Source: Alphaproteobacteria bacterium
GTDB taxonomy: Bacteria; Pseudomonadota; Alphaproteobacteria; Bin98
Reading direction: 5' to 3'
NCBI GenBank assembly: GCA_965261615.1
Contig: OZ253461.1
Coordinates: forward strand, 313,223 to 377,222
Length of the DNA stretch: 64,000 nucleotides
Shown: one piece after another, positions 2,261 through 51,134 of the stretch
How the letters are laid out: each line of letters opens with the position of its first letter
Position numbering within the stretch: the first letter of the stretch is position 1
Translations under genes and position numbers: made by a program
Notes under the pieces: model-generated
The model's input: only the letters and a program-made list of their open reading frames with translations
Databases searched by the model: none
What the model was told of the DNA's origin: nothing

Positions 2261-4060
2261 ATGATGCGCGTAGTGTTTGTGATATGGGGCTTGAGTTTGT
2301 TAGCCTCTGGTTGGTTTGAGACATCTTCTGAAGATTTAAACAGTTTTTCTCGAGTTGATCAGAGCGGTAGTGAGGGGGAAAAATTTGCCTGTATTAAGAT
2401 GCAAAGTTTTAAGCGCGTGTGTCAGAATAGGCAAGACGGTGAGTCCGTGTTGGGGGGGCAAGGGCCTTTTAAATCGTACATCATAGCCGGTAATATGGAG
2501 GACTTGATTTTAAATGAGATCGAGTATATACGCCTTGCAAAAGAGGTGGTCACTCCGAGGCAGATAAAGCTGCTTATGATGCTGAAGTCAGAGTTCACCT
2601 GGGGAAATCAAATATTAAAGCAAGGTATTCTTGCAGTCCTGGCAAACGATCAGCAAAGCGAGATCAAAAGTCAGGAAGTTTTGCGGGGTGTGAATGTTGA
2701 AGGTCTCCTAGATGCATTAATTCCACAGAATCAAGCGAGCGACTTAAAGGAAAAAGAAATTTTTTTACATGTGCATTTGTTTCAAAGAGCATTGCCTACC
2801 GGTGTTCTTTCAGCGGCTAGCACCTTTCAGATTGGACTGGAGGCTCCTATGGCCAGTGCACTTTTTAAGATCATGCAAGGTGCAGGGGCAACAGAGAAGC
2901 AGCAAGTTACATTCTGCAGCAGTTACGCACAATGGCTGATGACAGCCTATTCTTCTCTTGAAGGTGTGCCAGGTATTGAGGGTGGTACGCTACTGCATGA
3001 CTTTTTAAACCCTGGGGAAAAATCTCGAAATTTGTTTCAGCAAATCAGTAAACATTGTCCGCAGGGCGCCTTAGGTTATGTGCGGTATTTGGCTTGGGCC
3101 CAGAGCCGTGAAGGCCTGTGGGCTGTGCTTCCTGAAGTGCGTGCAACTCAGGGGGGAACGCTTGCAAAGATAATGTGGTCTACGCTTATCAAAGAAGCCA
3201 TTGATGTAGATAAGGTGCTCGAGTATCTTCAATGTGACGTTGAAGGAGGGGCGGCAGCCAAGTGTCAAATGCTGCAAACTATGTGCTCCTACCTTGCTCA
3301 AGCAATGATACGGCAAGGCCAGCAAGCGTGGTGCAGCCCTCTTTCTGCAGCAAAGGCAGAGGAAGTGATTGAGTGCATGCATCGTGTGAATCAGAAAAAA
3401 AGTGAAGAGGTCTATAGTTTTTTTCTGCAGTGTATGCGCTTGGTTCAGGGCGAGGATATGTCTCAAGAACAGTTGAGTGGGTCTCTATGGTCCAAGCTAT
3501 GCAGCGGGAATTATGCTCTTGATTTTTTAAACAAAATGAGTGAGGCGCAATTAGGCGTTTTTGGTGCAGCTTGGGAATACCGGGTCTACCTACAAGGCAT
3601 AATGCCTCCATTGCGGTGGTGGGATATGCTTTTTCAAAAAGAAAGGCTACCATCGAAAAAACACGTCAAGGAATACCTGTCTCGTTTGATTTGGGAGGCT
3701 ATCAATACGTCGCCCCCAAGTGTTCGGTCGGAAAAACTTTTCTGCTTAAAAGGGTTGATTAAGTTAGAGGGGAGTGACATTTGTGAGGCCACAGTGATGA
3801 CCGAAATAAAGTTGGTTTGTGCGCACCTTATTCAAGAAGGTAAAGGGGAGAGAGGGATGGCGTATGCCTTTGTGTGTCAAGGAGAGGGTTTTGTGTCGGC
3901 ACCCCATATGCGTGAGCGTTTGCAGAGCGCGAAGTCTTGGCTAAAGCCAGAGGGTTTTTTGCAAAAAAGGGCGTCTTTAGGGTTAAGGGTGCCTACCAGC
4001 TTATTGTGTTTATGGCAGCAGAAACAACCAGAGGAGAGTTGGTCTGTTACGGATCTTTAA
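2261..4060 (+). CDS. Secreted family protein (599 aa)
   Basis: Signal peptide MMRVVFVIWGLSLLASG. Upstream -10-like 'tgtagaat' and RBS 'agaggga'. NWW-like 'YVRYLAWAQSREGLW' and the C-module (GLIKLEGSDICEATVMTEIKLVCAHL) shared with paralogs. Confidence 0.85.
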   Translation: MMRVVFVIWGLSLLASGWFETSSEDLNSFSRVDQSGSEGEKFACIKMQSFKRVCQNRQDGESVLGGQGPFKSYIIAGNMEDLILNEIEYIRLAKEVVTPRQIKLLMMLKSEFTWGNQILKQGILAVLANDQQSEIKSQEVLRGVNVEGLLDALIPQNQASDLKEKEIFLHVHLFQRALPTGVLSAASTFQIGLEAPMASALFKIMQGAGATEKQQVTFCSSYAQWLMTAYSSLEGVPGIEGGTLLHDFLNPGEKSRNLFQQISKHCPQGALGYVRYLAWAQSREGLWAVLPEVRATQGGTLAKIMWSTLIKEAIDVDKVLEYLQCDVEGGAAAKCQMLQTMCSYLAQAMIRQGQQAWCSPLSAAKAEEVIECMHRVNQKKSEEVYSFFLQCMRLVQGEDMSQEQLSGSLWSKLCSGNYALDFLNKMSEAQLGVFGAAWEYRVYLQGIMPPLRWWDMLFQKERLPSKKHVKEYLSRLIWEAINTSPPSVRSEKLFCLKGLIKLEGSDICEATVMTEIKLVCAHLIQEGKGERGMAYAFVCQGEGFVSAPHMRERLQSAKSWLKPEGFLQKRASLGLRVPTSLLCLWQQKQPEESWSVTDL

Positions 4061-4447
4061 AGCGGATTCGCAATTGTGCTCAGCTACGATCTGATACAGT
4101 TAAGGGGGGGGCGTATATTGTGTTGCCCTTAACGTAGGCTGTTTTGCGGTAAGGAGCCTGTGAAATCCGCAGACCGGCACGCGCTAAGAAAAGTGTGCGT
4201 CGAATTGGGGGAGAAGGGCGTGATAACAATATATAATACCTTGCTCTAAGTGGCTGCTTGTGGATGTGCAGTCAGATGGTGTGCTCCCGAGTGTTTTCGG
4301 TGCAGTACAGGATGTTGGATTGTTGCTTCATAGATAATGCTTGCCTTCAAAAGTTGACGAGCTCATTCTTTTCCGTAAGCTTAGTGATTGGTGTTTTTGA
4401 TTGAAGGGTGATTATAGTTGGGGTATAATCGAAGCAAAAGATAGTTT

Positions 4448-17109: not shown

Positions 17110-17121
17110 GGGGGGGGGGGG
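17110..17121. repeat. Homopolymeric poly-G tract (G12) in the 448-bp intergenic region upstream of the 17402 gene
   Basis: Twelve consecutive G read directly from the sequence. Longest homopolymer in the window, inside an unusually long non-coding spacer (16954–17401). Confidence 0.9.
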
Positions 17122-17401
17122 AGATGATTTGCATGCGAAGGTTGATAATCGCAATACGCTAAGTTTTGTGATGAGGGTGGTTTCTTGTGAGGAAAAGGTA
17201 GCGACGGGGAAGGGGCGGCAAATCCAGATGGGTGGTTATATTGTGATTGCGAGCCAGATAATGACCTTGCTTTCCGGACGCACAGGAATCGCACCGGCAG
17301 AAATTCGGAATCAACGTGACTATGATTGCATAATATTTGTGGTTGTATAGAAGGCGCACTTGGGTTACAATAACCGAAATAGCGTAAGTGCTGGGAGATT
17401 C

Positions 17402-18307
17402 ATGGTGAAGGTCTGTGTTTTAGTTTTGATAGGTTTAAGTGTTTTTTCCGCTGAAGTGGCGTACAAGTGCGCAAGCGATCGAGTCCAGATGTCCCTGGAT
17501 CTTTTTGAGCCAATAGCAAAGTTTGTGTCAGGAATTGACAAGCCAGCGTCTCAAGCTGTAGCGTCTTTTTATGAACGTGAAAACGCATGCTCCCATACGG
17601 ATGTATCTGTATGGAAAACGCAAGGTGAGCCCGCAGACATAAGCGATTTGCTGGTAGGTTTACGTAAACTTCAAGCTGCTTGGACTTCTGATACAGATAG
17701 AGCAAGTTTTGATCTTCCTGGGCTATTGGCCCAGGTTAATATGGGGGGGGCTTTGGTTGGAGATCTTACAGCAAGTGGAGGAAAAGATGCTTATGGCGGA
17801 CTATTATTAGGCTATTTGGCACCTAAACTATCAATGGGAGAGTTATTTGAGCTGCTTAAGCAAGCTTCGGGCATGAAGTGCTACCGATCGTCTGTCGCAC
17901 TGCTTATTTGGCATGCTATAAAAAACAGGTTTGATCAAAGAGTTGATCAACTGGAGCCAGCATTTCAATATTTGAAGTTTTTAGTGATGCAGGAAGGGCT
18001 GTCTAATAGTTATGCGAAGAGTGAACTGGATAAGGTGAGCCAATATTTGTGTAACACTTATTGGTGTAATGTGGGTGCTAAAAAGTCTGCTGAGGAGTTT
18101 TTGACTACACATTGTGGTTCGTGTGAGAGTATAGCGCAAATGGAGTTGCTTGCATATGCTGGCGATGCACTGCAGCGAGCAGAGCAGGATGTCGCACTGA
18201 CAGAGTCGTCTGTGGATGATTCAGCGCCAGTGGAGTTGTGTGCATATCATGGTGCTGAACGGCAGAGGGAAGAGTGGAAGGTTGCGCTGACAGAATCGGC
18301 TTTATAG
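17402..18307 (+). CDS. Internally deleted 855-type family protein (about 301 aa)
   Basis: -10 'gTTACAAT' at about 17366. N-terminus 'DLFEPIAKFVSGIDKPASQAVASF' matches genes at 24899 and 34147 for about 110 aa, then joins directly to the C-terminal module 'YLAPKLSMGELFELLK ... FQYLKFLVMQEGLSNSYAKSELDKVSQYL'. The junction lies at a G8 tract (17743–17750). Confidence 0.75.
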   Translation: MVKVCVLVLIGLSVFSAEVAYKCASDRVQMSLDLFEPIAKFVSGIDKPASQAVASFYERENACSHTDVSVWKTQGEPADISDLLVGLRKLQAAWTSDTDRASFDLPGLLAQVNMGGALVGDLTASGGKDAYGGLLLGYLAPKLSMGELFELLKQASGMKCYRSSVALLIWHAIKNRFDQRVDQLEPAFQYLKFLVMQEGLSNSYAKSELDKVSQYLCNTYWCNVGAKKSAEEFLTTHCGSCESIAQMELLAYAGDALQRAEQDVALTESSVDDSAPVELCAYHGAERQREEWKVALTESAL

Positions 18308-18340: not shown

Positions 18341-20437
18341 ATGTCGCGTATAACAAAATTTTTAATACTTTTGAGCTGGGGCTGCGTAGCCGCTAGCCTG
18401 GAGAAACCCTCGGGAGAACTTGAGCGTGTAAATATTTCGTATCTTGCACAAGCGTATCATACTCTAGTCGTAAGGGCCCCTTATATGATGTTTGCAAATG
18501 AAAAGGCGATAGGTCTATATAATAATCTGTGCATGAGTTGGAGAGGGGTGTTGGGTGAGATAGTATCTTGTGAGTCATTTCAACCGCTGGTTGTGCAAAG
18601 TGGACCAGCTCCTACAAGCGCTAATTTCCTTCCGCTAAAAAACAGAGCTGCGGACTATTTGTTTAGCAATAGTCGTCAGATGTTAGTATGTCGTGTGCTT
18701 GATCTCTTGTGCGGCTTGAAAGAGCGGTTTGTTGATGCGAACGTGAAAGATTTAACAGAGGCGTTAATTCAGAGTCTTCCCAAAAACGATGATGTGCGCG
18801 AGTGCATACTCAAGTTTAAAACGGAGGTGGATTTTGTCATGTCAGAGGATCTTATGTGTGCGTGTGCGCGCGCGCAGCGGGATGGATCTAACTCTGTATT
18901 GAAGTGCTACGATGCCGATTTTTATGAATTTCTGTGTGCCGGAGAGCAGGGCTATACAGTACTTTTAGCAGAAAGTTTAGAGTTTTTTCAGCCTTTTTTT
19001 AAAATGATTTCGCAAGCTGACACTCCTCTGTTTGCTGTTATAAATAATGCGCGATTGAGGTATGAAGCTTTGCGAGCAGATTATGGTGGGAGATGTATTC
19101 ATTCAGATGACCATATCACAAACATTAGGGGTTTAACGGCTAAATTGCATACCCTGAAAGCCCAACTTGGCACCCGAAAAGAGGATGCGCAATTTGTGAC
19201 TTTATACTCTGGGCGGAGTGTAGACGATTTTTGGATGGAGGTGTTGAGCTATGTGCTTCAAAAAGGCACGGAAATGCAAGCTTCATGTGTGGGTACGCAA
19301 GGTTTCGTAGCGTTTTTAGAAAGCGTTGGAGTTGAGCCATCCATTATAGCTGAATTTTGCACAGTTGTTACACAGCGGTTAGGGTGTGGGACAGAGTGTC
19401 ACCATCTCGATAAAAACACAACATATTATAAATTTGTTTCTGGGGTGGAAATCAAGGGGTTTGTTCAGAGTTTGATTGACGGTCCATGTATTTGTACACG
19501 GGAAGGTTCCCCACCAGACCATCTTTTGCAATACATGGGTTTTTTAGTGACTCGCTCGGGGACTAACTGGTGGGAGGTGCTCGATGGATTGCAGGAAAGT
19601 GGCTGCCAATATGGGAAAAAAGGAGATCAGTATTTGGATACCGCTTGGGCTCACCTTGTGAGCGCGAGATTTGACTTAGCTGACGTGTGTGCGTACCTTA
19701 GTTTGATGGAGGAAAAGCTTGCTGCATTCCCGCAAGATCAGGCGCGGTTGGTGGAGATCGTGTGTAAAAGGATTAACCTTAGGTGTGGTGCTTGCAGTAT
19801 TTGGGCGGAGGATCGTGGTGTGAAATGGATGATGGGTAAGCTTAATAGCGCTTTGCATGCGATGCAGGGCTATAGAACCCCAGATATAAAAATAGTGAAC
19901 GTTGATATCACTAATGTGGATAAAATGATTGCTTTGATGGATCGTATGATCCGTGAGAGAAGTGTAGAATTTTTGCAGTTAGTTGTGAAATGTTTGCCGG
20001 AAAAGACAGGTTTTGGTGTGCCTCAAGGTGTGGGTTGTCTGGAAGAAGGGACTTTATACCGGGGTTTGCTAGAAGGTCACAATACACTGCATTTTTTGAT
20101 GAATATTGTGTCTTGTAAAGATAGGGCACACACAGGGCAAGAGCGGCAAATCGTGTATAATGTCTTAACAGAGTATTTGCAGCGATTAGGGTTTAAGTTG
20201 CTTGCCTTTGATCCACCACGGGCGTTGTCGGACGTGATACAGGCTCAGAGCAGGAACAGCGCGAGTGAGACGGTTCCACTTGATTGTGTGTTGGCGATGG
20301 TAAAAAAAAGCAAACAGTGGCGGGAAAGGCATGCTGAGCAAGCGTACTATTGGGGAGGAAGGCGGCTTTCTGATGGACGGGTGTACTTTTTTTGTGAGTC
20401 AAAGGATGAGGCGGAATATCGAGGGTCGCGGTTGTAA
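18341..20437 (+). CDS. Secreted family protein (698 aa), 720-type
   Basis: Signal MSRITKFLILLSWGCVAAS. 'GLYNNLCMSW', 'FLVTRSGTNWWEVLDGLQESGCQYGKKGDQYLD', 'FLQLVVKCLP'. Paralog of genes at 22585, 27498 and 36740. Confidence 0.85.
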   Translation: MSRITKFLILLSWGCVAASLEKPSGELERVNISYLAQAYHTLVVRAPYMMFANEKAIGLYNNLCMSWRGVLGEIVSCESFQPLVVQSGPAPTSANFLPLKNRAADYLFSNSRQMLVCRVLDLLCGLKERFVDANVKDLTEALIQSLPKNDDVRECILKFKTEVDFVMSEDLMCACARAQRDGSNSVLKCYDADFYEFLCAGEQGYTVLLAESLEFFQPFFKMISQADTPLFAVINNARLRYEALRADYGGRCIHSDDHITNIRGLTAKLHTLKAQLGTRKEDAQFVTLYSGRSVDDFWMEVLSYVLQKGTEMQASCVGTQGFVAFLESVGVEPSIIAEFCTVVTQRLGCGTECHHLDKNTTYYKFVSGVEIKGFVQSLIDGPCICTREGSPPDHLLQYMGFLVTRSGTNWWEVLDGLQESGCQYGKKGDQYLDTAWAHLVSARFDLADVCAYLSLMEEKLAAFPQDQARLVEIVCKRINLRCGACSIWAEDRGVKWMMGKLNSALHAMQGYRTPDIKIVNVDITNVDKMIALMDRMIRERSVEFLQLVVKCLPEKTGFGVPQGVGCLEEGTLYRGLLEGHNTLHFLMNIVSCKDRAHTGQERQIVYNVLTEYLQRLGFKLLAFDPPRALSDVIQAQSRNSASETVPLDCVLAMVKKSKQWRERHAEQAYYWGGRRLSDGRVYFFCESKDEAEYRGSRL

Positions 20438-22047: not shown

Positions 22048-22220
22048 AGCATATGAGTGAGCGTGTGTTGAGCTTATCGTGAATGATACGATGTCCGAAT
22101 CTTCTGGTCGTTTCTCGTGTAATTGGGTGCTGAACGGTGTTGGGGCAATTAATTTTATTTAATAATTGTGTGGATTGAATTTTTGCGCTAGCATGGTCTA
22201 AAAGGACAATTCAGTTTAGT

Positions 22221-22547
22221 ATGAAGTTGATGTTTTTAATGGCTTTGGGGTTTAGTGGTGTTGCAGCAGAATTGTCGGAAGAAGACGTGAGCATGCGTAT
22301 TGAGCGGGCTTTGGATCTGTTTGCACCAATAGCAAAGTTTGTGTCAGGCATTGACAAGCCAGCCTCTCAAGCGGTAGTGGCCTTTTGCGAGAGAGAAAGT
22401 GCAAACTCCTCAAAGGAGCGAGTCAGATGCTGGAGAGAATCAAGTGAAATAAACCACTTACAAGAATTACTGCCTTGTTTACTTAACCTGAACACAGCTT
22501 CAGCTGGACGTAATCCAGGCTTTGATTTTCCTGAGTTGGTAGTTTAA
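22221..22547 (+). pseudogene. Truncated 5' fragment (108 aa) of an 855-type gene
   Basis: Upstream promoter and leader copy (22150–22220) and the first about 100 codons are homologous to the 24899 and 34147 genes. Ends right after the 'GFDFPELVV' motif, where the full-length genes continue for a further roughly 750 aa. The -10 is degenerated to TAGCAT. Confidence 0.7.
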
Positions 22548-22584
22548 ATTTTGGTGGATTTTTGGGATGAAAAGAGAGTTAATT

Positions 22585-24701
22585 ATGTTTATGAAAATGC
22601 TAATGGTTGTAAGCTGGAGCTGCTTGGCGTTGGATCTGGTGCAGAACCCGCACGCTGGCGTAGTGATGAAAGCGGAAGGTTTTTCTATTTCTAAGGCGGA
22701 ATATGCCTCTCTTGTGGCTCACGCAAGTAGTATGGGTTCTGCGAGTGAGAGGGCTGTAAGCTTGTACAATCAAGTGTGCGCGCAGTGGAAGGAGCGCCTA
22801 GGGTCTTCTGAGCCACTTCAGCCTGTGGTGGCCTCGCAAAAGCAAGAGAAAATAATAGATGTCGGGCTTTCACTGCAAAGCAGGGCGGCGGACTATTTGT
22901 TTCGCAGCAGACATCAAATGGCAGTGTTGAGAGTGTGGTTTGGTTTAGCGTCTTTGCCTCGGGGCGTTGTTGATGAGACGGTGGAAGAGTTAAAGGGTGA
23001 GTTGCTGAAGAGCCTGCCAAAAATGATGATTTGCTAGAGTGCATACGTAAGTATAAGGAGGGAGATTTGGTTATTTCGGATCAACTGGTGTGTGCGGGTA
23101 TGCATGCGATAAATGCGGGGCTATACCTTCAAGGGTTAGAAGAGTGTGACCAAGACTTTTTTGAATTTTTGATGCAGTGTGAGAAAACCTATGTTGAGAG
23201 GTTGGAGACAAGTGTGGGGTTGTTTCAGCATTTTTTTCAAATAACTGCACAAGCGGACACGCCTCTTTTTAAGTCTATACAAAATGCTCAGTTGCGATAT
23301 CATGCCTTGGCGGCTAAGCACGGTCGGAGCGTGCTGCCGTGCTGTAAGCATATAGAAAGAGTCAGTGATTTAGTGAGCAAACTGAAAGCCTTGAAACGCA
23401 GCTTTGATGGGCATAAACAAGATGCGCAGTTTGTAACGTTATATACAGGCTGTGATATAGAGCAGTTTTGGGCAGAGGTCTTGCGTTATGTTCTCCACAA
23501 TGGTGAAGAAATGGTTGCGTCACCTAAGAGCACGGCAGGTTTGGTAAGCTTCCTAGAGAGCGTTGGTGTAGCGCCGTCTAATATAGCGGAACTTTGTGCG
23601 TGTGTTACAGGGCGTGAAGCCGTTAATGCAGGTGACTGTAAGGGTGTTGATAAGACCGCAACATACTATAAGTTTGTTACCGGACAAGAAATAGGTAGAT
23701 TTTTGAACCTTTTGTTGAATTGCTCGTGTCTCTGCCCAAACAATCCTGAAGATCATATTTTGAAATACATGGATTTTTTACAGAGGCAAGGGGGCGTTAA
23801 CTGGTGGAGTGTTTTGTCCGGTTTGATGGAAGCTGGCTGTCAATATGGACAAAAGGGCGACCAGTATTTGGATAGAGCATGGGGCAAGCTTATGAGCGAT
23901 AGGTTTGACTTAATCAACGTATGTCAGTACCTTTGTGAGATGAAGGAGAGGCTATCTTCCTTACCGCAGTCTCAGGATAGATTGGCACAGATTGTGACTA
24001 ACAGGCTTAATCGTCGATTAGGCCCAGGCAGGATCTGGGATCAGGATTGCGGGATGAATTGGCTATTTGGCAAGATTAATGGAGCTCTCCATGCGCTGCA
24101 AGGCTATAGTGCACCAGGCATTAGGATTGAAGGTGTTGATGTAGTTAATGTTGGGAACATGCTTTCTTTAATGGAGAGCATGATGCAGGAGCGGGGCCTG
24201 GATTTTTTACAGTTAATTGTGCAGTGTTTGCCCGAAAAGAACACTTCAGGTGTGATGCAAGGTACAGAGAGACTGAAAGAGGACTCTCTATACCGAAGTC
24301 TGCTAGAAGGTCGTGATACCCTGAGTTTTTTGACGAAAATTGTGGCTTGCAAAAGCCAATCGAAACAAAAAGCGTGTAATGTTTTAGTCTCGTATTTGCA
24401 AAATTTAGGCTTTAAGGTTGTACCATCTAGTACGTTAGGGTCGCTAATGGCAGTTATATCTGCGCAGAAGCCGCAAAGTGGTGAGCATGCTCCGATAAAA
24501 CTGGATCAAGTGTGGGATATGATAAAAGAAAGCGAACAGTGGTTTGCAAAAGATGAACAATCTAAAGCAACAAATTATAGGTTCCTTTCAGATGGCAGGC
24601 TGTACTTTAGCTGGGAGTCTGATCTAGAAGTATCGCACAGGGCATCACAGGCAGGAGAGCTGCAAAAGTTCGGGCTCAGCATGACGTTGTTGGCCGAGTA
24701 A
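22585..24701 (+). pseudogene. 720-type family gene disrupted by a -1 frameshift at an A5 tract (23019–23023); splits into ORFs 22567–23037 and 23031–24701
   Basis: Both ORFs align contiguously to the 27498 gene. The 18341 paralog reads 'ccc aaa aac gat gat' (KNDD) here, whereas this copy reads 'cca aaa atg atg att tgc tag'. Restoring one base gives 'LPKNDDLLECIRKYKEGD' in frame. Confidence 0.75.
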
Positions 24702-24843
24702 GAGGGGGCGAAGCGGTGCCGTTTTAACGGAAAGTTATGGACTGGGACAGATAGGTTATTCTACCTTTGCGATAAGACCTAAAAAGAGAAAAAACTCTCT
24801 AATTTGTTAATATTGGGGTGGGGGAAATTCATGTATTTAATAA

Positions 24844-24872
24844 TTGCGTGGATTGAATTTTTGCGATAAGAT
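24844..24872 (+). promoter_or_regulatory. Promoter TTGCGT-17-TAAGAT for the 24899 gene
   Basis: Same promoter and leader copied in front of three 855-type genes (22150–22220, 24828–24898, 34073–34146). Spacing is exact in all three; the -10 is degenerate (TAGCAT, 22189–22194) only in the copy before the truncated gene. Confidence 0.5.
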
Positions 24873-24898
24873 GATCTAAAAGGAAAATGCAGTTTAGT

Positions 24899-27460
24899 AT
24901 GAAGTTGATGTTTTTAATGGTTTTGGCGTTTGGTGGTGCCGCAGCAGAGTTGTCGGAAGAAGACTTGAGCGCGCGCATTGAGAGGGCCTTGGATTTTTTT
25001 GCACCAATAGCAAAGTTTGTTTCAGGAATTGACAAGCCAGCCTCTCAAGCGGTAGTGGCTTTTTGTGAGAGAGAAAGTGCAAGATCTTCAAAGGAGTGCG
25101 TTAGGGACTGGAAAGAAGCAAAAGAAATAACCAAGCCGCACGACTTACTGCCTTGGCTATATACTCTGAAAACAGCTTCAGCTGGGCGTAATCCAAGCTT
25201 TAGTCTTCCTGGAGTCCGGATGGGCGTGGATATGGGGGATATTTGGCTGGAGATTTTGGAGAGCATTTGGGATATGCCCGCTAGTTATAAGGCTATTGAT
25301 GGCATGGTGAATATCATGGAAAAGATGGGCGTGAAAAGACCCTATATCGCGGCTTATTGTAATTGTGTTGCCAGCGTTGCGCGTGGCAATTTGCTTGATT
25401 TTGCGCCGGCCAGTCCGGAGGAGGGTACGACGTTTTATAAGACTTGGCAAGGAGAAAACATTGAGGAGCATATCTCAGGTTTGCTGGAGTGTGTGCAGAT
25501 TTCGAAGGTCTATCTGACGTCTGCTTCTATTTTGGGTTATATACGGTTTTTGGACTGGAAAGGTGGGGCTAACTGGTGGGAGGTTTTCCAAGCTTTGCAA
25601 AAAGCAGAAAAAACATTTGAAGGCTGTCATGGCTCTGGATTAAATAGTGATTGGGGGGATTTTTTTAGAGAAGATATCCGCAAGACTTGGCTGAAGTTTT
25701 TTAGAGAGGACAGCAGAGGAGAAGAGAGGTTTCTCAATGAAAGCCTTACGCTTCGGGAGTGTATGGAAGAGTCTAAAAAGGAAGGTTGGGAGTGTCCACA
25801 TTTGGTGATGTGTGCTGCTGCGGACGTGCCGTATGACATTTTAATGGATTTGGCAAAAACAGACCAGGAGCAATATGACTTTTGGCAGCGTTGCCGTAGA
25901 ATTTATGCTGAAAAAGCAGAATCTGCGTTAGTGATTTTTGTGCCAGTGATAAACCGTATTCAGCAGTCGAATTCTAGGGCGTGTAAAGCGCTGCAGTCCT
26001 TATACTTTAAGGCAAGGTCGGTGCGGCCCCCTCAAGAAAAGAACCCTGTGTGGGGTAAAAGCCAACCGGTGATTAACGACATTGGACAATTGCGTACAGG
26101 CTTGCGGGCATTAGAGCTGAATTGTGCGCAACAAGGCATGGAGAGCTTTGAGTGGCCAGGGCGTTTATTTGGAGCTGATATGGGTAAGATATTTTTGGAT
26201 CTTAACTATGATACGCAAACTTTATTTGATGTGATAGAAATAACAAACCTAATGCAAAGGTTGGGAGTGCACCCAGATTTTGTTTTACAATACTGTGTTT
26301 TTTCTGCTTCTGCAGTATGCGAGGCGCCCAAAGGACAATTTTTCCGCACATGGAGCTGGAGAAGTTTGGATTCAGAGGCGACAGCGTATAAGTTTTTCTA
26401 TGGGCAGAATATTGACCAGTTTGTTTCTCAGATTATACTTAACGAGAAGAGTGATGGGTTTATACACTGGCCAATTGCAGATTATTTGAGCAAATACGTA
26501 GCATACTTATCTTGGAAGGGTTCTGTGAACTGGTGGGACTTTCTTTTGGGTCTGTACAAAGGTGGTGCGTCACGAAAAGGAAGGCTTGCGCCGGTCTTTG
26601 TGAGTGTGCGTAACCAGTTGCTAAACGAGGTGGGTGATTGTGATAAAGCGCATAATTATTTGGTAGATGTAATTGGACAGCTGAGAGACCTAAAGCAGGA
26701 AAAGCAGGAAGCGCTAGAAGACCTCTTGGATTGGTTGGTGCGATATCGTGAGGGGGGGGCGTCTGCACTATGGACAGATAAGCGCATGAAAAACGTTAAT
26801 ATGCATATAGTGAGCCAAATGGTGGAGCTCATACACTTCTCCATGCCCGTGGGTACTAAAACGCTAAGCTTTTTTGATTTTGTCGTTCAGAGTTTGCCAA
26901 CAGAGGGTGTGTTGCAGAAAAATGGAGGAGTGCAGCGTCTTCAGGAAGGGACTTACAAAAGGCTGGTGGAAGGAGAAACTGCTATGCCATTTTTGAGCGG
27001 GATGTTGTTAACAGGGAGTCGTTTCGAGGGAGGGCAGGCGCGAGCTGAGAGGAATGCGGTGCATTACATAGGCTATCTAGTACCTAAACTATCGTTAGAG
27101 AAGTTGATGGATATGCTTAAGTCTGTGCCTAGTCTTCAAGAGGGTCAAGAAGTCGTATCATCACTCTTGTGGAATGCAATAAAAGCTAAGAAAGAAAAGA
27201 GAGTGGAGCCGTTACTGCAATATTTGAAGTTCTTACTACAGCAAGAAGGAATGTCTTTGGTTTATGCAGAGAAAGAGATCGATGAAGTTTGTCATGATCT
27301 GCATGCTTTAGGAGGGCAAAGAGTTGCGGAAGCCTTTTTGCGAAATCACTGCAGTGAATGCAGCACTGCAGAGCAGCTGTCTTTACGCACGCGTGCTAAT
27401 AAGATACTGCAGCAGCAGGAGCAAGAGAGTGACCTAACAGAGTGGAGCTTAGTAGTTTAA
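24899..27460 (+). CDS. Secreted family protein (about 853 aa), 855-type
   Basis: Promoter TTGCGT(24844–24849)-17-TAAGAT(24867–24872). Signal MKLMFLMVLAFGGAAA↓E. 'WECPHLVMCAAADVPYD...DFWQRCRR', 'YLSWKGSVNWWDFLLGLYKGG', 'FFDFVVQSLP' and C-module. Near-identical to the 34147 gene. Confidence 0.9.
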   Translation: MKLMFLMVLAFGGAAAELSEEDLSARIERALDFFAPIAKFVSGIDKPASQAVVAFCERESARSSKECVRDWKEAKEITKPHDLLPWLYTLKTASAGRNPSFSLPGVRMGVDMGDIWLEILESIWDMPASYKAIDGMVNIMEKMGVKRPYIAAYCNCVASVARGNLLDFAPASPEEGTTFYKTWQGENIEEHISGLLECVQISKVYLTSASILGYIRFLDWKGGANWWEVFQALQKAEKTFEGCHGSGLNSDWGDFFREDIRKTWLKFFREDSRGEERFLNESLTLRECMEESKKEGWECPHLVMCAAADVPYDILMDLAKTDQEQYDFWQRCRRIYAEKAESALVIFVPVINRIQQSNSRACKALQSLYFKARSVRPPQEKNPVWGKSQPVINDIGQLRTGLRALELNCAQQGMESFEWPGRLFGADMGKIFLDLNYDTQTLFDVIEITNLMQRLGVHPDFVLQYCVFSASAVCEAPKGQFFRTWSWRSLDSEATAYKFFYGQNIDQFVSQIILNEKSDGFIHWPIADYLSKYVAYLSWKGSVNWWDFLLGLYKGGASRKGRLAPVFVSVRNQLLNEVGDCDKAHNYLVDVIGQLRDLKQEKQEALEDLLDWLVRYREGGASALWTDKRMKNVNMHIVSQMVELIHFSMPVGTKTLSFFDFVVQSLPTEGVLQKNGGVQRLQEGTYKRLVEGETAMPFLSGMLLTGSRFEGGQARAERNAVHYIGYLVPKLSLEKLMDMLKSVPSLQEGQEVVSSLLWNAIKAKKEKRVEPLLQYLKFLLQQEGMSLVYAEKEIDEVCHDLHALGGQRVAEAFLRNHCSECSTAEQLSLRTRANKILQQQEQESDLTEWSLVV

Positions 27461-27497
27461 AGTTTGGTGTGTGTTGGGAGTAAGAAGAGGATTGGTT

Positions 27498-29633
27498 ATG
27501 TCTATTATTAAAATGTTAATACTTTTAAGCTGGAGCTGTGTAGCAGCGAGCTTGGAACAGACCTCAAGTGAATGGGGAAATAAAGAGTACGCGAAGCTTG
27601 CGATTGAGTACCATGCCCTGGCCTCAAGGTCTGACTATATGGTGAGGGCAAGTGAAAAGGCAGTAGGCCTGTATAATACTGTGTGTGCGCAGTGGAGGGA
27701 AAAGTTGGGTGACCGGGTGTCTTTTGAGCAGTATCAGCCGGTAGCTGCTGAAGAAAGGCCAGCACCAATAATAGAAAGTGGCCCTACGTTGCAAAGTAGG
27801 ACGGCGGACTATTTGTTTTACAATAAAGATCAGATGTCATTATTAGGCGTATATGTTTGCTTGGACACTGTGGTTGAGAAGTTGGTTGATGAAAATGTGA
27901 CAGCGTTAAAAAATGAATTAATGCAAGTTTGGTCCGATAGTGAAGATCTCTTAGAGTGCATACAACAGTTTCAGCGTGATATAGACTTTAGTTTTTCGGA
28001 TCAACTGGCGTGTGCGTGTGCGCACGTAAAGTCTGCAGGAGGTGCCTTTATGAGCCGATTGCAGATGGCTGATAGAGGGCTTTATGATTTTCTTTGTCGG
28101 GGTGAAAGTGTGTATGTCGAGAGATTAGCAACCAGCCTATCGTTTTTTCAACCATTCTTTCGAATAATTTTCATCGACAGAGACGACAGCCCTCTGTTTT
28201 ATGTTATAAATGAGGCTCGAGCACGATATCGTGAGCTGAACGACTATACTACTACACCGGCAACAAGTTTGCCGGGTAAAATCGAAAACACCTCAGAGCT
28301 AGTGCGCAAACTGACAGCCTTGAAACATAGCTTTGATGAGAATAAACAAGATGTGGAGCTTGTAACGTTATATACAGGCTGTGATATAGAGCAGTTTTGG
28401 GCAGAGGTGTTGCGCTATGTGCTCCATCACGGTGAAAAAATGACCGCGACACCTAAGAGCAGGGCAGATTTGGTAGGCTTCTTAGAGAGCGTCGGTGTAG
28501 CGCCGTCTAATATAGCTGAATTTTGTGCGTGTGTTACAGGACATGGAGCCGCAGAGGCGGGCAGTTTTAAGGATGTGGATAAGACCGCAACATACTATAA
28601 GTTTGCTACTGGACAAGAAATAGGTCGCTTTTTGAACCTTTTGTTGAACTGCGCGTGTCTTTGCGCAAAAAATGGTGAAGACCATATTTTGCAATACATG
28701 AATCTTTTACAGATACAAGGGGGCGTTAACTGGTGGAATGTTTTGTCTGGTTTGCTGGAATCTGGCTGTCAATATGGACAAAAAGGCGACCAGTATTTGG
28801 ATACAGCATGGGGCAAGCTTATGAGCGATAGGTTTGACTTAGTCGGCGTATATCAGCACCTGGTTGATATGAGGACGCAGCTATATTCTCTACCGCAGTC
28901 TCAAGATAGATTGGCAAAGATCGTGACCAACAGGCTGAATCGTCGGTTAGGAATAGGTAAGATCTGGGATCAGGATCGCGGGATGAAGTGGCTATTTGGA
29001 AAGATTAATGGAGCTCTCCACGCGCTGCAAGGCTATAGCGCACCAGGTATTAGGATTGAAGGTGTTGATGTAGTTAATGTTGGGCGCATGCTTTCTATCA
29101 TGGAGAGCATGATGCAGGAGCCAGACCTAGATTTTTTACAGTTAATTGTGAAGTGTTTGCCAGAGGCGCCTGGCTGTATACGAGGCGTGGAGGCTCTGGA
29201 GGAAGGATCTCTATACCGTGGGTTGCTAGAAGGTAGAAGGATTGTGGAGTTTTTGATGAGTATTATGTCTTATAAAGACAAGTCGAGACAGAAGGCGTGT
29301 AATGTCTTGACCGCGTATTTGCAAAACTTAGGTTTTAAGATTTTATCATCGAATGCATTAGAATCGGCAGCGGCCGTTATCTCTGAGCACGCGCCGCAAG
29401 CAAGTGGTCAGCATGCTCAGACTCAGATAAACCTGGAGCAAGTGTGGGATATGATACAAGAAAGCGAACAGTGGCTTGCAAGAGATGAAAACCCTAGAGA
29501 AGTGATTTATAGGTACCATCCAGATGGCCGGCTGTACTTTAGTTGGGAGTCCGCCCGAGAAGCCTCGCACAGGGCGTCGCAGGTAGGAGCGTCGCAAAAG
29601 TTTGGGCGCAAGATGACGTTGTTGGCTGAGTAA
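27498..29633 (+). CDS. Secreted family protein (about 711 aa), 720-type
   Basis: RBS AAGAGGA. Signal MSIIKMLILLSWSCVAAS. N-terminal about 298 aa near-identical to the 36740 gene; C-terminal two-thirds about 85% identical to the 22585 pseudogene. Confidence 0.9.
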   Translation: MSIIKMLILLSWSCVAASLEQTSSEWGNKEYAKLAIEYHALASRSDYMVRASEKAVGLYNTVCAQWREKLGDRVSFEQYQPVAAEERPAPIIESGPTLQSRTADYLFYNKDQMSLLGVYVCLDTVVEKLVDENVTALKNELMQVWSDSEDLLECIQQFQRDIDFSFSDQLACACAHVKSAGGAFMSRLQMADRGLYDFLCRGESVYVERLATSLSFFQPFFRIIFIDRDDSPLFYVINEARARYRELNDYTTTPATSLPGKIENTSELVRKLTALKHSFDENKQDVELVTLYTGCDIEQFWAEVLRYVLHHGEKMTATPKSRADLVGFLESVGVAPSNIAEFCACVTGHGAAEAGSFKDVDKTATYYKFATGQEIGRFLNLLLNCACLCAKNGEDHILQYMNLLQIQGGVNWWNVLSGLLESGCQYGQKGDQYLDTAWGKLMSDRFDLVGVYQHLVDMRTQLYSLPQSQDRLAKIVTNRLNRRLGIGKIWDQDRGMKWLFGKINGALHALQGYSAPGIRIEGVDVVNVGRMLSIMESMMQEPDLDFLQLIVKCLPEAPGCIRGVEALEEGSLYRGLLEGRRIVEFLMSIMSYKDKSRQKACNVLTAYLQNLGFKILSSNALESAAAVISEHAPQASGQHAQTQINLEQVWDMIQESEQWLARDENPREVIYRYHPDGRLYFSWESAREASHRASQVGASQKFGRKMTLLAE

Positions 29634-29719
29634 AAGTTATGTATGGCTAATGTCAAGAAAGTGTGTGCATTGATAGGAGCGTAAAGCACGGTTGTTTTAA
29701 TGGAAGTCGTAGGATTAGT

Positions 29720-33938: not shown

Positions 33939-34091
33939 TTGTTTTTATACGTTTTGATTAGCATAAATCCTAAAATTGCTAGAGGTAGTGACCCAGTTAG
34001 GTGGGAGCCATAACTAGGTGCGCGCTCTGACCTGCAGGGTGAAGGTCTTCTTATGTCGTATGGTGGTGGAGAAGTTAATTTCATTTAATAA

Positions 34092-34120
34092 TTGCGTGGA
34101 TTGAATTTTTGCGATAAGAT
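34092..34120 (+). promoter_or_regulatory. Promoter TTGCGT-17-TAAGAT for the 34147 gene
   Basis: Same promoter and leader copied in front of three 855-type genes (22150–22220, 24828–24898, 34073–34146). Spacing is exact in all three; the -10 is degenerate (TAGCAT, 22189–22194) only in the copy before the truncated gene. Confidence 0.5.
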
Positions 34121-34146
34121 GATCTAAAAGGAAAATGCAGTTTAGT

Positions 34147-36702
34147 ATGAAGTTGATTTTTTTAATGGTTTTGGGGTTGAGTGGTGTTGCAGCAGAGTTG
34201 TCGGAAGAAGACGTGAGCACGCGTATTGAGAAGGCTTTGGATCTGTTTGCACCAATAGCAAAGTTTGTTTCAGGAATTGACAAGCCAGCCTCTCAAGCTG
34301 TAGTGGATTTTTGTGAGAGAGAAGGTGCTAGAGCCTCAAAGGAGCGCGTCAGGAACTGGAAAGAAGAAAAAGAAATAACCAAGCTGGAAGACTTGCTACC
34401 TTGGTTATATAATCTGAAAACAGCTTCAGCTGGGCGTAATCCAAGCTTTAGTTTGCCTGGAATCCGGATGAATGTGGATATGGGGGATCTTTGGCTGGAG
34501 ATTTTGCAGAGAGCTTGGAGTATGCCCGCTACTTATAAGGTTATTGATGGCATGGTGAATATCATGGAAAAGATGGGCGTGAAAAGACCTTATATCGCGG
34601 CTTATTGTAATCGTGTTGCCAACGTTGCGCGTGGCAATTTTCTTGATTTTGCGCCGCCCAGTCCGGAGGAGGGTACGACGTTTTATAAGACTTGGCAAGG
34701 AGAAAACACTGAGGAGCATATCTCAGGTTTGCTGGAGTGTGTGCAGATTTCGAAGGTCTATCTGACGTCTGCTTCTATTTTGGGTTATATACGGTTTTTG
34801 GACTGGAAAGGTGGGGCTAACTGGTGGGAGGTTTTCCAAGCTTTGCAAAAAGCAGAAAAAACATTTGAAGGCTGTCATGGCTCTGGATTAAATAGTGATT
34901 GGGGGGATTTTTTTAGAGAAGATATCCGCAAGACTTGGCTGAAGTTTTTTAGAGAGGACAGCAGAGGAGAAGAGAGGTTTCTCAATGAAAGCCTTACGCT
35001 TCGGGAGTGTATGGAAGAGTCTAAAAAGGAAGGTTGGGAGTGTCCACATTTGGTGATGTGTGCTGCTGCGGACGTGCCGTATGACATTTTAATGGATTTG
35101 GCAAAAACAGACCAGGAGCAATATGACTTTTGGCAGCGTTGCCGTAGAATTTATGCTGAAAAAGCAGAATCTGCGTTAGTGATTTTTGTGCCAGTGATAA
35201 ACCGTATTCAGCAGTCGAATTCTAGGGCGTGTAAAGCGGTGCAGTCCTTATACTGTAAGGCAAGGTCGGTGCGGCCCCCTCAAGAAAAGAACTCTGTGTG
35301 GGATAAAAGCCAACCGGTGATTAACGACATTGGACAATTGCGTACAGGCTTGCGGGCATTAGAGCTGAATTGTGCGCAACAAGGCATGGAGAGCTTTGAG
35401 TGGCCAGGGCGTTTATTTGGAGCTGATATGGGTAAGATATTTTTGGATCTTAACTATGATACGCAAACTTTATTTGATGTGATAGAAATAACAAACCTAA
35501 TGCAAAGAGTGGGAGTGCACCCAGATTTTGTTTTACAATACTGTTTTTTTTCTGCTTCTGCAGTATGCGAGGCGCCCAAAGGACAATTTTTCCGCACATG
35601 GAGCTGGAGAAGTTTGGATTCAGAGGCGACAGCGTATAAGTTTTTCTATGGGCAGAATATTGACCAGTTTGTTTCTCATATTATACTTAACGAGGAGAGT
35701 GATGGGTTTGTACACTGGTCAATTGCAGATTATTTGAGCAAATACGTAGCATACTTATCTTGGAAGGGTTCTGTGAATTGGTGGGGCTTTCTTTTGGGTC
35801 TGTACAAAGGTGGTGCGTCACGAAAAGGAAGGCTTGCGCCAGTCTTTGCGAGTGTGTGTAAACAGTTGCTAAACGAGGTGGGTGATTGTGATAAAGCGTA
35901 TGATTATTTGGAAAGTGTAATTGAGCAGGGGCAGCTGAGTGCCGGCCTAAAGCAGGAAGCGCTAGAAGGCCTCTTGGATTGGTTGGTGCGATATCGTCAG
36001 GGGGCGTCTGCACTATGGATAGATAAGCGCCAAATGAAAAATGTGAGTATGTCTACAGTGAGCCAAATGTTGGAGATTATACACCTCTCCATGCGTGAAA
36101 AAACGCTAAGCTTTTTTGATTTTGCCGTTCAGAGTTTGCCAACAGAGCGTATGTTGCAGAAAAGTGGAGGAGTGCAGTGTCTTCCGGAAGGTTTCTACAA
36201 AAATTTGGTGGAAGGAAAAAGTGCCATGCCATTTTTGAGCGAGATGGTGTTGACAGGGAGCCTTTGCAAAGAGGGGCAGGCGCAAGCTGAGAGGAATGCG
36301 GCTCATTACATAGGCTATCTAGCACCTAAACTATCATTAGAAAAGCTGGTGGATATGCTTAAGTCTGTGCCTAGTCTTCAAAAGGGTCAAGAAGTCGTAT
36401 CGTCACTCTTGTGGGGTGCAATAAAAGCCAAGAAAGAAAAGAGGGTGGAGCCGCTACTGCAATATTTGAAGTTCTTACTACAGCAAGAAGGAATGTCTTT
36501 GGTTTATGCAGAGAAAGAGATCGATGAAGTTTGTCATGATCTGCACGCTTTAGGAGGGCAAAGAGTTGCGGAAGCCTTTTTGCGAAATCACTGCAGTGAA
36601 TGCAGCACTGCAGAGCAGCTGTCTTTACGCACGCGTGCTAATAAGATACTGCAGCAGCAGGAGCAAGAGAGTGACCTAACAGAGTGGAGCTTAGTAGTTT
36701 AA
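34147..36702 (+). CDS. Secreted family protein (about 851 aa), 855-type; recent duplicate of the 24899 gene
   Basis: Promoter TTGCGT(34092–34097)-17-TAAGAT(34115–34120). Long stretches are nucleotide-identical to 24899–27460 at offset +9248, with a divergent mid-gene patch. Confidence 0.9.
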   Translation: MKLIFLMVLGLSGVAAELSEEDVSTRIEKALDLFAPIAKFVSGIDKPASQAVVDFCEREGARASKERVRNWKEEKEITKLEDLLPWLYNLKTASAGRNPSFSLPGIRMNVDMGDLWLEILQRAWSMPATYKVIDGMVNIMEKMGVKRPYIAAYCNRVANVARGNFLDFAPPSPEEGTTFYKTWQGENTEEHISGLLECVQISKVYLTSASILGYIRFLDWKGGANWWEVFQALQKAEKTFEGCHGSGLNSDWGDFFREDIRKTWLKFFREDSRGEERFLNESLTLRECMEESKKEGWECPHLVMCAAADVPYDILMDLAKTDQEQYDFWQRCRRIYAEKAESALVIFVPVINRIQQSNSRACKAVQSLYCKARSVRPPQEKNSVWDKSQPVINDIGQLRTGLRALELNCAQQGMESFEWPGRLFGADMGKIFLDLNYDTQTLFDVIEITNLMQRVGVHPDFVLQYCFFSASAVCEAPKGQFFRTWSWRSLDSEATAYKFFYGQNIDQFVSHIILNEESDGFVHWSIADYLSKYVAYLSWKGSVNWWGFLLGLYKGGASRKGRLAPVFASVCKQLLNEVGDCDKAYDYLESVIEQGQLSAGLKQEALEGLLDWLVRYRQGASALWIDKRQMKNVSMSTVSQMLEIIHLSMREKTLSFFDFAVQSLPTERMLQKSGGVQCLPEGFYKNLVEGKSAMPFLSEMVLTGSLCKEGQAQAERNAAHYIGYLAPKLSLEKLVDMLKSVPSLQKGQEVVSSLLWGAIKAKKEKRVEPLLQYLKFLLQQEGMSLVYAEKEIDEVCHDLHALGGQRVAEAFLRNHCSECSTAEQLSLRTRANKILQQQEQESDLTEWSLVV

Positions 36703-36739
36703 AGTTTGGTGTGTGTTGGGAGTAAGAAGAGGATTGGTT

Positions 36740-38842
36740 ATGTCTATTATTAAAATGTTAATACTTTTAAGCTGGAGCTGTGTAGCAGCGAGCTTGGAAA
36801 AGGTCTCAAGTGAATGGGGAAATCAAGAGTACGCGCAGCTTGTGATTGAGTACCATGCTCTGGCCTCAAGGTCTGGTTATATGGTGAAGGCAAGTGAAAA
36901 GGCAGTAGGCCTGTATAATACTGTGTGTGCGCAGTGGAGGGAAAAGTTGGGTGACCGGGTGTCTTTTGCGCAGTATCAGCCGGTAGCTGCTGAAGAAAGG
37001 CCAGCACCAATAATAGAAAGTGGCCCTACGTTGCAAAGTAGGACGGCGGACTATTTGTTTTACAATAAAGATCAGATGTCATTATTAGGCGTATATGTTT
37101 GCTTGGACACTGTGGTTGAGAAGTTGGTTGATGAAAATGTGACAGCGTTAAAAAATGAATTAATGCAAGTTTGGTCCGATAGTGAAGATCTCTTAGAGTG
37201 CATACAACAGTTTCAGCGTGATATAGACTTTAGTTTTTCGGATCAACTGGCGTGTGCGTGTGCACACGTAAAGTCTGCAGGAGGTGCCTTTATGAGCCGA
37301 TTGCAGATGGCTGATAGAGGGCTTTATGATTTTCTTTGTCGGGGTGAAAGTGTGTATGTCGAGAGATTAGCAACCAGCCTATCGTTTTTTCAACCATTCT
37401 TTCGAATAATTTTCATCGACAGAGACGACAGCCCTCTGTTTTATGTTATAAATGAGGCTCGAGCACGATATCGTGCGCTGAACGACTATACTATTACACC
37501 GGCAACAAGTTTGCCGGGTAAAATCGAAAACACCTCAGAGCTAGTGCGCAAACTGACAGCCTTGAAACATAGCTTTGATGAGAATAAACAAGATGTGGAG
37601 CTTGTAACGTTATATACAGGCTGTGATATAGATCAATTTTGGACGAGAATGTTGAAAGGTATATGTCGTCATGGAACGGGCATGTATGCGTCATGTGCTA
37701 GTAGAAGTAATTTAGTGAATTTTTTCGAGCTTGCTGGAGTCGAACCATCTGCTATAGCGGAGCTTTGTGTGTGTATTGCGGAGGGCAAGCCTTGTGGTTG
37801 CTGCCGCCAGAAAAACACAAGATACATGCACTTTATTCAGGGAAAAGACGTAGGGTACTTTTTCAAACATTTATTGAATGGTGAGAGCCACAGGGAAAGT
37901 GTTGATGGCGAAAATCCAGAATATGTTTTGCAGTATATGGATTTTTTAGAGAGTGTTGGTGGAACTAATTGGTGGAATGTTTTAGACACATTGATGGATC
38001 TTGGTTGTCAGTATGGTCAAAAAGGTGACCAGTATTTGGATGTCGCTTGGGGCAAACTTGTGAGTGTAAGGTTTGGTTTAGCGGACGTGTGGGAGCATCT
38101 TAGTGCGATGAGCGAAAAGTTAGCGGATTTACCGGAGTCTAGGGAAAGACTGGTTGAGGTGGTGTGTCATAGGCTTAACCTGCGATTTGGTGTGGGCAGT
38201 GTTTGGGCAGAAGGCCATGGAGTGAAGTGGTTGTTTAGCAGGATAAATAGGGCTATACATATGTTGCAGGGCTATGGAACACCAGATATTCAGGTAGAAA
38301 ACGTTGATGTTAGTAATGTTGCTAGAGTAATTTCAATCCTGGATCGCATGGCCCCAAATAAGAGCACAGAATTTTTTCAGTTCGTTGTGAAGTGTTTGCC
38401 AGAGGCGCCTAGTTGTATCCGGGGTGTGGAGGCTCTGGAGGAAGGCTCTTTATACCGTGGTTTGCTAGAAGGTAGTGGGACTGTGGAGTTTTTGATGAAT
38501 ATTCTGTCTTGTGGAGACAAGGCGCACGAACGTAAGGAGCAGAAAAAAGTGTGTAATATTTTAACAGAGTATTTGGAACGCTTAGGTTTTAAGCTGACTG
38601 CTCCGCACGCACTAGGGGAGCTAGCACAGGTTATATCTCACCAACAAGTGAAAAGTGGAACAAATATACCGGTGCCTTTGGAGCTTGTGTGGAAAAGAGT
38701 TCAAAACAGTGAGCAGTGGCGAGATAAGGATATGCCTTCAGTTAGTTATTTGTTTGTGCCCAGGGCTCAACCGGACAATAGACTCTACTTTTGCTATGAG
38801 ACCGAAAAAGAGAAAAAACTTCGTGATTCGCAGAGGAGGTGA
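36740..38842 (+). CDS. Secreted family protein (about 700 aa), 720-type; chimeric relative to the 27498 gene
   Basis: First roughly 890 nt near-identical to 27498–28390. Sequence diverges abruptly after 'LVTLYTGCDI(D)QFW' at about 37633. Confidence 0.9.
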   Translation: MSIIKMLILLSWSCVAASLEKVSSEWGNQEYAQLVIEYHALASRSGYMVKASEKAVGLYNTVCAQWREKLGDRVSFAQYQPVAAEERPAPIIESGPTLQSRTADYLFYNKDQMSLLGVYVCLDTVVEKLVDENVTALKNELMQVWSDSEDLLECIQQFQRDIDFSFSDQLACACAHVKSAGGAFMSRLQMADRGLYDFLCRGESVYVERLATSLSFFQPFFRIIFIDRDDSPLFYVINEARARYRALNDYTITPATSLPGKIENTSELVRKLTALKHSFDENKQDVELVTLYTGCDIDQFWTRMLKGICRHGTGMYASCASRSNLVNFFELAGVEPSAIAELCVCIAEGKPCGCCRQKNTRYMHFIQGKDVGYFFKHLLNGESHRESVDGENPEYVLQYMDFLESVGGTNWWNVLDTLMDLGCQYGQKGDQYLDVAWGKLVSVRFGLADVWEHLSAMSEKLADLPESRERLVEVVCHRLNLRFGVGSVWAEGHGVKWLFSRINRAIHMLQGYGTPDIQVENVDVSNVARVISILDRMAPNKSTEFFQFVVKCLPEAPSCIRGVEALEEGSLYRGLLEGSGTVEFLMNILSCGDKAHERKEQKKVCNILTEYLERLGFKLTAPHALGELAQVISHQQVKSGTNIPVPLELVWKRVQNSEQWRDKDMPSVSYLFVPRAQPDNRLYFCYETEKEKKLRDSQRR

Positions 38843-43935: not shown

Positions 43936-43973
43936 AGAGGGATAGTAACCTATTTTTTCTGTATGTGCAACCG

Positions 43974-44843: not shown

Positions 44844-45006
44844 ATTTGATTATATAATATTTTTGTCGGAAATAAAGTTTTTGGTTTTAGTGTGTTCTTA
44901 AGCTTCGCGTGGCATATGCGAAGTATGGGCTATTTTGATATCGGTGAACGATGTTTTTACAAAAAGCTTGAGACCGTTTGCGCAGGACAAGGGCACGAAC
45001 CTGTCG

Positions 45007-47283: not shown

Positions 47284-47435
47284 ACCATCATTATACTATA
47301 GTGAGGTGTAAAATGCACGAAATATTTGACTAGCGCTAGGGGCAATATCTGAAGGGATGCAGCGTCTGAGAGCGCGGAGGTTCGGTAATGTGAAATCTTG
47401 CCAGCCAGTAATGAATATGGGATAATAAGGATAAT

Positions 47436-48362: not shown

Positions 48363-48737
48363 CGTAGATCTTGAGCCTTTTTGAGATGAAGGTTTGTATT
48401 GCGTCTGAGAGCGCTTGCGCCTGGCTGTAAAAATCAAGTCAATGTTCTATTTCTTTTGGGGTTTGGGAAAATCACTTAATAAACATAGAACGATGCATAA
48501 GCTTTGCTATGGTCAAAACATAGATTCTTTTATTGTGTAGTTAATCGAAATCAGCGGGATTTTATGGGAAGAGCTGTAGTAGAAGTAACCCGATATTTTG
48601 AGTGTTTAAGCTGTAGAAGGCAAGTGAATTGGTGGGGATTTGTGCTGGGTGGAGCATAACGAAAAGGATAGGGATTTGCTCTGTAAGGTGAATGTAGAGC
48701 TAGGGAGGCAAAAAGCTGCTGGTGTTAGTGTGACGCA

Positions 48738-48760: not shown

Positions 48761-48783
48761 GTATGGTCGTCGCTCAGGTGGGG

Positions 48784-49656: not shown

Positions 49657-49668
49657 TCTAGCATGAGT

Positions 49669-51104: not shown

Positions 51105-51134
51105 AAAAGCGGGGTTTTGACAATTTGGAGAGAG

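Follow-up and report, generated by a model that had tools for sequence, protein, structure and literature searches.

Overall organization of the array

The window, by which we mean the whole 64-kb stretch of DNA that was analysed, is an array of large open reading frames (ORFs), all of which lie on the plus strand except for a minus-strand cluster at 42946–50574. More than 25 orphan all-α secreted proteins are predicted in the array, and the members of the family described here have hydrophobic, signal-peptide-like N-termini. Neither the repaired protein discussed below nor its paralogs and neighbours gave a match in Pfam or NCBIfam, and tRNA and Rfam scans of the window found none. The AlphaFold2 model of the paralog that begins at 27471 is all-α, with roughly 35 helices (pLDDT 78, pTM 0.66). 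A Foldseek search with this model returned no PDB match beyond generic helical-repeat similarity (TM 0.2 or less).

When 5.8e9 proteins were searched with a word index, only four matched, all of them on the same 1,465,401-bp contig. An exhaustive profile search of 1.84e9 representative proteins gave 31 family members, 30 of which are on this contig. The single member found outside it (P0026), which is not of the 720 type, lies on a 4.6-kb ENA contig (ERZ26695794, ctg139591; 4578 bp) with genes at 509–2338 and 2356–4314, and has approximately 29% identity to 2261..4060 of the window. The base composition of ctg139591 (C 0.17, G 0.29) has the same unusual bias as the window, which suggests that it derives from a related, unsampled organism. 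Neither these two protein searches, nor scans of genome contigs with a paralog and with a family member from outside the window, nor scans of metagenome contigs with a protein query and with a DNA pattern of variable run length turned up a second copy of the locus.

We note that the GC skew, (G − C)/(G + C), is extreme and uniform, lying between +0.20 and +0.32 in every 4-kb bin of the window, with 16% C and 29% G. As the skew extends across the minus-strand genes at 42946–50574, it is linked to the strand and not to the genes. It shapes the encoded proteins, those of the plus strand being rich in G, V, E, W and C and those of the minus strand in P, S, T, Q and H. The orphan ORFs of the region 42946–50574, mostly on the minus strand, form a separate cluster that is unrelated to the first one, and they have no Pfam or NCBIfam match. 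This cluster contains four minus-strand ORFs of approximately 290–330 amino acids, which have signal-peptide-like N-termini and share up to 39% identity with one another, together with a 758-residue minus-strand ORF and a 308-residue plus-strand ORF (47436–48362) that show no similarity to these four.

Directly upstream of each of the four 720-type genes in the window lies a gene of the 857 type or one derived from such a gene. The positions of these two-gene units and of the other features considered here are collected in Table 1.

Table 1. Features of the locus and of the surrounding array, numbered from the first nucleotide of the window
Feature	Position	Strand	Remarks
Unit	17360..18307 then 18341..20437	+	
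Unit with frameshift	22221..22547 then 22567..24701	+	
Unit B	24887..27460 then 27471..29633	+	
Unit C	34135..36702 then 36713..38842	+	
Conserved leader region of unit	22136..22220	+	Also present in the intact units (24815-24886; 34062-34134)
857-type partner remnant	22221..22547	+	108 codons; N-terminal codons fused in frame to last few codons and ancestral stop
5′ fragment of 720-type gene	22567..23037	+	156 codons; hydrophobic signal-peptide-like N-terminus; premature TAG at 23035-23037
3′ part of 720-type gene	23001..24701	+	-1 frame; homologous from 23019 to the stop
Lesion interval CCAAAAA	23017..23023	+	One base fewer than paralogs: A5 for A6, or CC for CCC
Possible re-initiation site	23055..23069	+	AAGGAGG at 23055-61 and TTG at 23067-69, the start of the annotated 544-aa CDS
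G12 tract	17110-17121		Intergenic; ORF 17360..18307 starts about 240 bp further on
G8 tract	4104-4111		Intergenic
G8 tracts	17743-17750, 26752-26759		In frame within intact ORFs
T9 tract	52894-52902		Intergenic

The frame break in the 720-type gene

ORF 22567..23037 ends with the codons CTG CCA AAA ATG ATG ATT TGC TAG (23014–23037), which give LPKMMIC*. By analogy with the annotated start of the paralog, the true start of this 5′ fragment may be the ATG at 22585. The frame at -1 relative to the ORF has a TGA at 22998–23000 and is then open from 23001 to the stop codon at 24699–24701. Its translation includes ...AKNDDLLECIRKYKEGD... and its C-terminus, …MTLLAE*, is the same as that of the 27471 paralog. 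In the annotation of the source genome the locus appears as two CDSs, one of 156 amino acids (P0015) and one of 544 amino acids (P0001, 23067–24698).

When the 720-residue paralog was used as the tblastn query, the match to its residues 1–152 was in frame 1 and ended at 23010, and that to residues 155–720 was in frame 3 and began at 23016. Because the two halves of the paralog fall in two frames, the frame break is real, far beyond chance, and lies at 23011–23040, the position given in the sequence-only reading. The LPKMMIC* translation reported there is likewise confirmed by the window sequence. The lesion falls at codon 153 of 711 and the premature stop follows four codons beyond it.

That one extra base would rejoin the gene had also been claimed, and this proved correct. 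Addition of one base within 23017–23023 yields a protein of 711 amino acids which is colinear from end to end with the three intact paralogs in the window, sharing 60% identity with 27471..29633 (720 residues), 46% with 18341..20437 (698 residues) and 43% with 36713..38842 (709 residues). At the nucleotide level, the region 23371–24704 matches 28300–29636 with 82% identity (blastn).

Position of the lesion and the A5 run

The paralogs agree with the upstream frame through ...SLPK and with the downstream frame from (K)NDD. These limits confine the lesion to the seven nucleotides CCAAAAA, a stretch that is wider than the A5 run itself (23019–23023). Paralog 18341, the only one to resemble the stretch, reads CTT CCC AAA AAC GAT GAT at this site and contains A5 in frame. 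Paralogs 27471 and 36713 read TCC GAT AGT GAA GAT (TCCGATAGT), without any A-run. In view of the 18341 sequence, the loss of a C from CCC fits as well as the loss of an A from A6, and the ancestral sequence could have been either CCC AAA AAT (C lost) or CCA AAA AAT (A6, one A lost).

The A5 tract is statistically unremarkable and is not conserved in the family. The window contains 113 A-runs of exactly five nucleotides and 171 of at least five, and there are 500 homopolymer runs of at least five when all bases are counted. The earlier assignment of the lesion to the A5 tract therefore stands only in part: the lesion is in the run or adjoins it, but CCAAAAA is the closest limit, the missing base may be a C and the run is an ordinary one.

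The partner gene

Upstream of the frameshifted gene, the unit retains the leader region that it has in common with the intact units, with 84–85% identity (blastn) over a stretch that runs from approximately 85 bp before the ATG to within the coding sequence. Alignment of the units before the ATG at 22221 shows conserved ATTTAATAATTG.GTGGATTGAATTTTTGCG...AAAAGGA. Scans for promoters and terminators around the locus gave results no better than those from shuffled sequences.

The partner remnant has 70–71% identity (tblastn) to residues 1–122 of both 24887..27460 and 34135..36702. Positions 22136–22533 match 24815–25211, which comprises the leader and the first 325 bp of the intact partners (84–85% identity), and positions 22536–22622 match 27449–27538, which takes in the final 12 bp of the partner with its stop codon, as well as the junction between partner and 720-type gene. 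The TAA of the remnant (22545–22547) aligns with the TAA at 27458–27460. Since both ends of the partner are matched and its middle is absent, the gene has undergone an internal in-frame deletion of approximately 2.2 kb. A short TGGAG-like microhomology is present at the ends of the deletion.

Among the four units, a truncated partner and a frameshift occur together only in 22221..24701 and, as read from the alignments, this unit has suffered two independent hits. A C-terminal remnant of an 857-type gene is also found at 50709–51095 (approximately 110 codons, 52–53% identity by tblastn), where it sits in the 540-bp gap before ORF 51117..52886. The array is clearly in birth-and-death turnover.

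Age of the lesion and constraint

The downstream part of the gene is conserved, in agreement with the sequence-only reading. Its 561 codons contain no stop and no further lesion, and 41 of the 49 family-conserved residues are retained, compared with 27–48 in the intact members. For these codons, 5.05% of all single-base changes would create a stop, and the frame would have a chance of 0.5 of staying open if divergence were 0.8%, falling to 0.05 if it were 3.5%. That no stop has arisen when some 5% of point changes would yield one points to a young lesion, which by this estimate is younger than about 1–3.5% neutral divergence.

For the 3′ 441 codons, dS to the nearest paralog is 0.357 and dN/dS is 0.435, which is typical of the family, other pairs giving 0.30–0.40. 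A three-way estimate of branch-specific dN was contradictory between outgroups, as expected from gene conversion, and was left unused. With no second lesion, no rise in dN/dS and the conserved residues kept, a real recent lesion, a sequencing error and a tolerated or recoded frameshift would all look alike by these measures.

Interpretation

In our view, the 720-type gene at this locus has probably become a pseudogene through a fresh and ordinary frameshift, in a unit that is decaying within a fast-evolving orphan array, and is not a slipped-strand switch. One base would have been lost in CCAAAAA, most likely from A6 to A5 by ordinary replication slippage and possibly from CCC to CC, and this loss would recently have disabled one gene among those for a lineage-specific family of all-α, signal-peptide-bearing proteins of approximately 700 residues. 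Translation from the native start would end after 156 codons, while the remaining 555 or so codons would receive trace translation at best, or would be expressed as a signal-less fragment of 544 amino acids from the TTG at 23067. The frame break and its position, the intact downstream frame, the deletion in the partner and the ordinary nature of the tract are shown; that the lesion is a true mutation, that it abolishes the function of the gene and in which order the events took place is what we infer. Since the 857-type gene of the unit has likewise been hollowed out by its 2.2-kb deletion, the whole unit appears to be in the course of being lost from a birth-and-death tandem array. Fresh pseudogenisation was one of the two options offered by the sequence-only reading, and it fits all of the evidence, namely the open downstream frame, the 41 retained residues, the dN/dS of 0.435 and the gutted partner. 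The promoter-proximal region of the unit, which is still 84–85% conserved, speaks against decay.

The explanation that we take most seriously after this one, although we consider it unlikely, is a sequencing error, in which case the run would be one base longer in the true genome, leaving the gene intact. Residual indel errors in long-read assemblies are commonest at homopolymers, and the source, a single 1,465,401-bp contig, suggests long reads; apart from one base, moreover, the gene looks perfectly functional. However, the intact ORFs in the window hold 134 runs of six, 34 of seven and 13 of eight nucleotides with no frame break. A platform that miscalled A5 or A6 should fail first at these 181 runs within ORFs, which disfavours an error here. 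No other homopolymer-associated split gene was found by tblastn, and the large independent deletion in the partner gene cannot be a base-calling artefact.

It is less probable again that the split is tolerated or even functional, with a secreted 156-residue fragment and a re-initiated cytoplasmic fragment of 544 residues, or that the broken copy serves as a donor in gene conversion. A perfect Shine–Dalgarno sequence lies 5 nt before the TTG and 18 nt past the premature stop, and both pieces are annotated as CDSs. This Shine–Dalgarno sequence, however, arises from ordinary codons for K-E-G-D and has no conserved counterpart in the paralogs, and the 544-residue piece would be without the signal peptide of the family. 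As for a donor role, the paralogs are clearly mosaic, but there is no evidence for an expression-site architecture. In units B and C, 24811–28400 matches 34059–37642 with 95% identity over 3.6 kb, a tract spanning the whole of the 857-type gene and the first 930 bp of the following 720-type gene, after which the identity drops abruptly to approximately 60%. The frameshifted gene has its 82% identity to unit B only in the 3′ 1.3 kb, with a junction near 28300–28400. Such patterns suggest segmental gene conversion or recombination within genes, and with mosaic paralogs the repair or sampling of a broken copy by gene conversion is conceivable. Around the lesion itself the identity to any paralog is only approximately 66% (blastn), so no recent conversion has taken place there. 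A wider form of the same idea, which we rank below the previous one and regard as very improbable, is that the array constitutes a recombination-driven variation system in which paralogs exchange segments of kilobase size and broken copies act as silent donors, open to repair or sampling by gene conversion, so that the lesion would be reversible by recombination and not by slippage at A5.

The second option of the sequence-only reading was a phase-variable switch, in which the A-run would toggle between A5 (OFF) and A6 (ON) at high frequency and thereby switch a surface or secreted protein. The lesion does lie in or beside a homopolymer and falls within the 5′ fifth of its gene, which encodes a signal-peptide protein and belongs to a multigene family, and the downstream frame is intact; it may also be speculated that so small a genome is without mismatch repair. 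A change in length would toggle translation of an otherwise intact gene, as it would at any fresh frameshift; in tract length, conservation and over-representation the locus does not resemble a contingency locus. A run of A5 or A6 is far below the lengths associated with reversible switching (poly-A/T of at least 10, poly-G/C of at least 7; PMC6321876), and even the PhasomeIt cut-offs, which are the same, admit some tracts of doubtful switching efficiency (PMC6321876). The run is one of 171 A-runs in the window that have at least five nucleotides; paralogs 27471 and 36713 have no such run, 18341 has it in frame, and the lost base could be a C. The long tracts of the window (G12, G8 and T9) are intergenic or in frame and none of them is at the locus. 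On these grounds the switch option was set aside as highly improbable. If it were nevertheless true, as mixtures of A5 and A6 in reads would reveal, it would represent rare switching at a very short tract, and nothing here points to it.

As a separate observation, we note that the G12, G8 and T9 tracts, unlike A5, do reach the usual cut-offs for phase variation. The number of G12 tracts expected from composition is about 0.01.

Least probable of all is a ribosomal frameshift, programmed or leaky, in which tRNA-Lys would slip by -1 on A_AAA (23019–23022) ahead of a downstream hairpin and some full-length protein would be made. The shift needed is indeed -1, A_AAA is in the correct frame inside the 34-nt overlap 23001–23034, the zero-frame stop follows four codons on, and a hairpin starts at 23031, 8 nt past the run (ΔG -24.6 kcal/mol, z -3.2). 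Against this, the overlap contains no X_XXY_YYZ heptamer, the sequence being G_CCA_AAA, and the hairpin relies on bases that differ in the paralogs. Its energy is only at about the 7th–10th percentile of 87-nt windows in the gene, which has stronger structures elsewhere (for example, z -5.5 at 23782), and after this sliding-window control the hairpin was given little weight as a candidate stimulator. The three close paralogs have no split, and all more distant family members are also single ORFs. In Escherichia coli, tetramers without a stimulator gave about 0.15% frameshifting against a background of 0.11%, and A_AAA was the weakest of six tetramers that responded to a strong pseudoknot, the range being 0.26–5.6% (PMC4066793). 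Trace read-through at A_AAA is thus possible, and a programmed site is unlikely.

Returning to the reading as a fresh frameshift pseudogene, such a lesion is of little import in itself, because bacterial genes die most commonly in just this way, by loss or gain of a single base at a short run, and here only one of many paralogs is affected. Its interest would be that of a timestamp, indicating that the orphan array is turning over now and that one unit has been caught with a gutted partner and a second gene that has only just been broken. The surrounding array, with its orphan secreted proteins, conversion tracts, GC skew and G12 tract, is more unusual than the frameshift.

Comparison with known systems

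Homopolymeric contingency loci are known from Campylobacter, Neisseria, Haemophilus and Helicobacter, and the poly-G of the Chlamydia pneumoniae pmp genes is a further example. The present locus has in common with them a 1-bp change of frame at a mononucleotide run, the position of the run in the 5′ part of the gene, an exported product and membership of a multigene family. The tracts of contingency loci comprise at least seven G/C or at least ten A/T (PMC6321876). Here, in contrast, there are 5–6 A, which are neither conserved among the homologues nor over-represented.

In the endosymbionts Buchnera and Blochmannia, frameshifted genes are rescued by transcriptional slippage at poly(A) tracts. 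A reduced genome, a frameshift at an A-run and a gene that is otherwise intact are common to those cases and to this one, but the rescue needs approximately nine or more A, compared with five here.

The -1 frameshift sites of dnaX and of the IS1/IS3 transposases resemble the locus in the direction of the shift, in having Lys AAA at the site, in the short overlap and in a hairpin, which here lies 8 nt on. Those sites combine an A_AAA_AAG heptamer with a hairpin or pseudoknot, whereas the present site has the tetramer alone and a P-site CCA that cannot re-pair. Its structure, moreover, is unexceptional and its arrangement is found in no homologue, unlike the dnaX and IS sites (PMC4066793).

For the interpretation favoured here, that of a young pseudogene in a unit undergoing loss, the closest likeness is to the IchFam arrays of Ca. 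Ichthyocystis, a host-associated intracellular bacterium, in which fragmented duplicates occur in tandem arrays of orphan families (PMC4943182). The two differ in that the IchFam proteins have no sequence relation to the present family and are encoded at 35–38% GC, compared with 45% GC and an extreme GC skew here. Unlike IchFam, the present family is limited, in the collections searched, to one 1.47-Mb genome and one metagenome contig. Both nevertheless form long, same-strand tandem arrays of orphan genes whose products are membrane proteins or carry signal peptides and lack any match in Pfam, and in both intact, mosaic and degraded members are found together, a state of decay that is read as birth-and-death turnover (PMC4943182).
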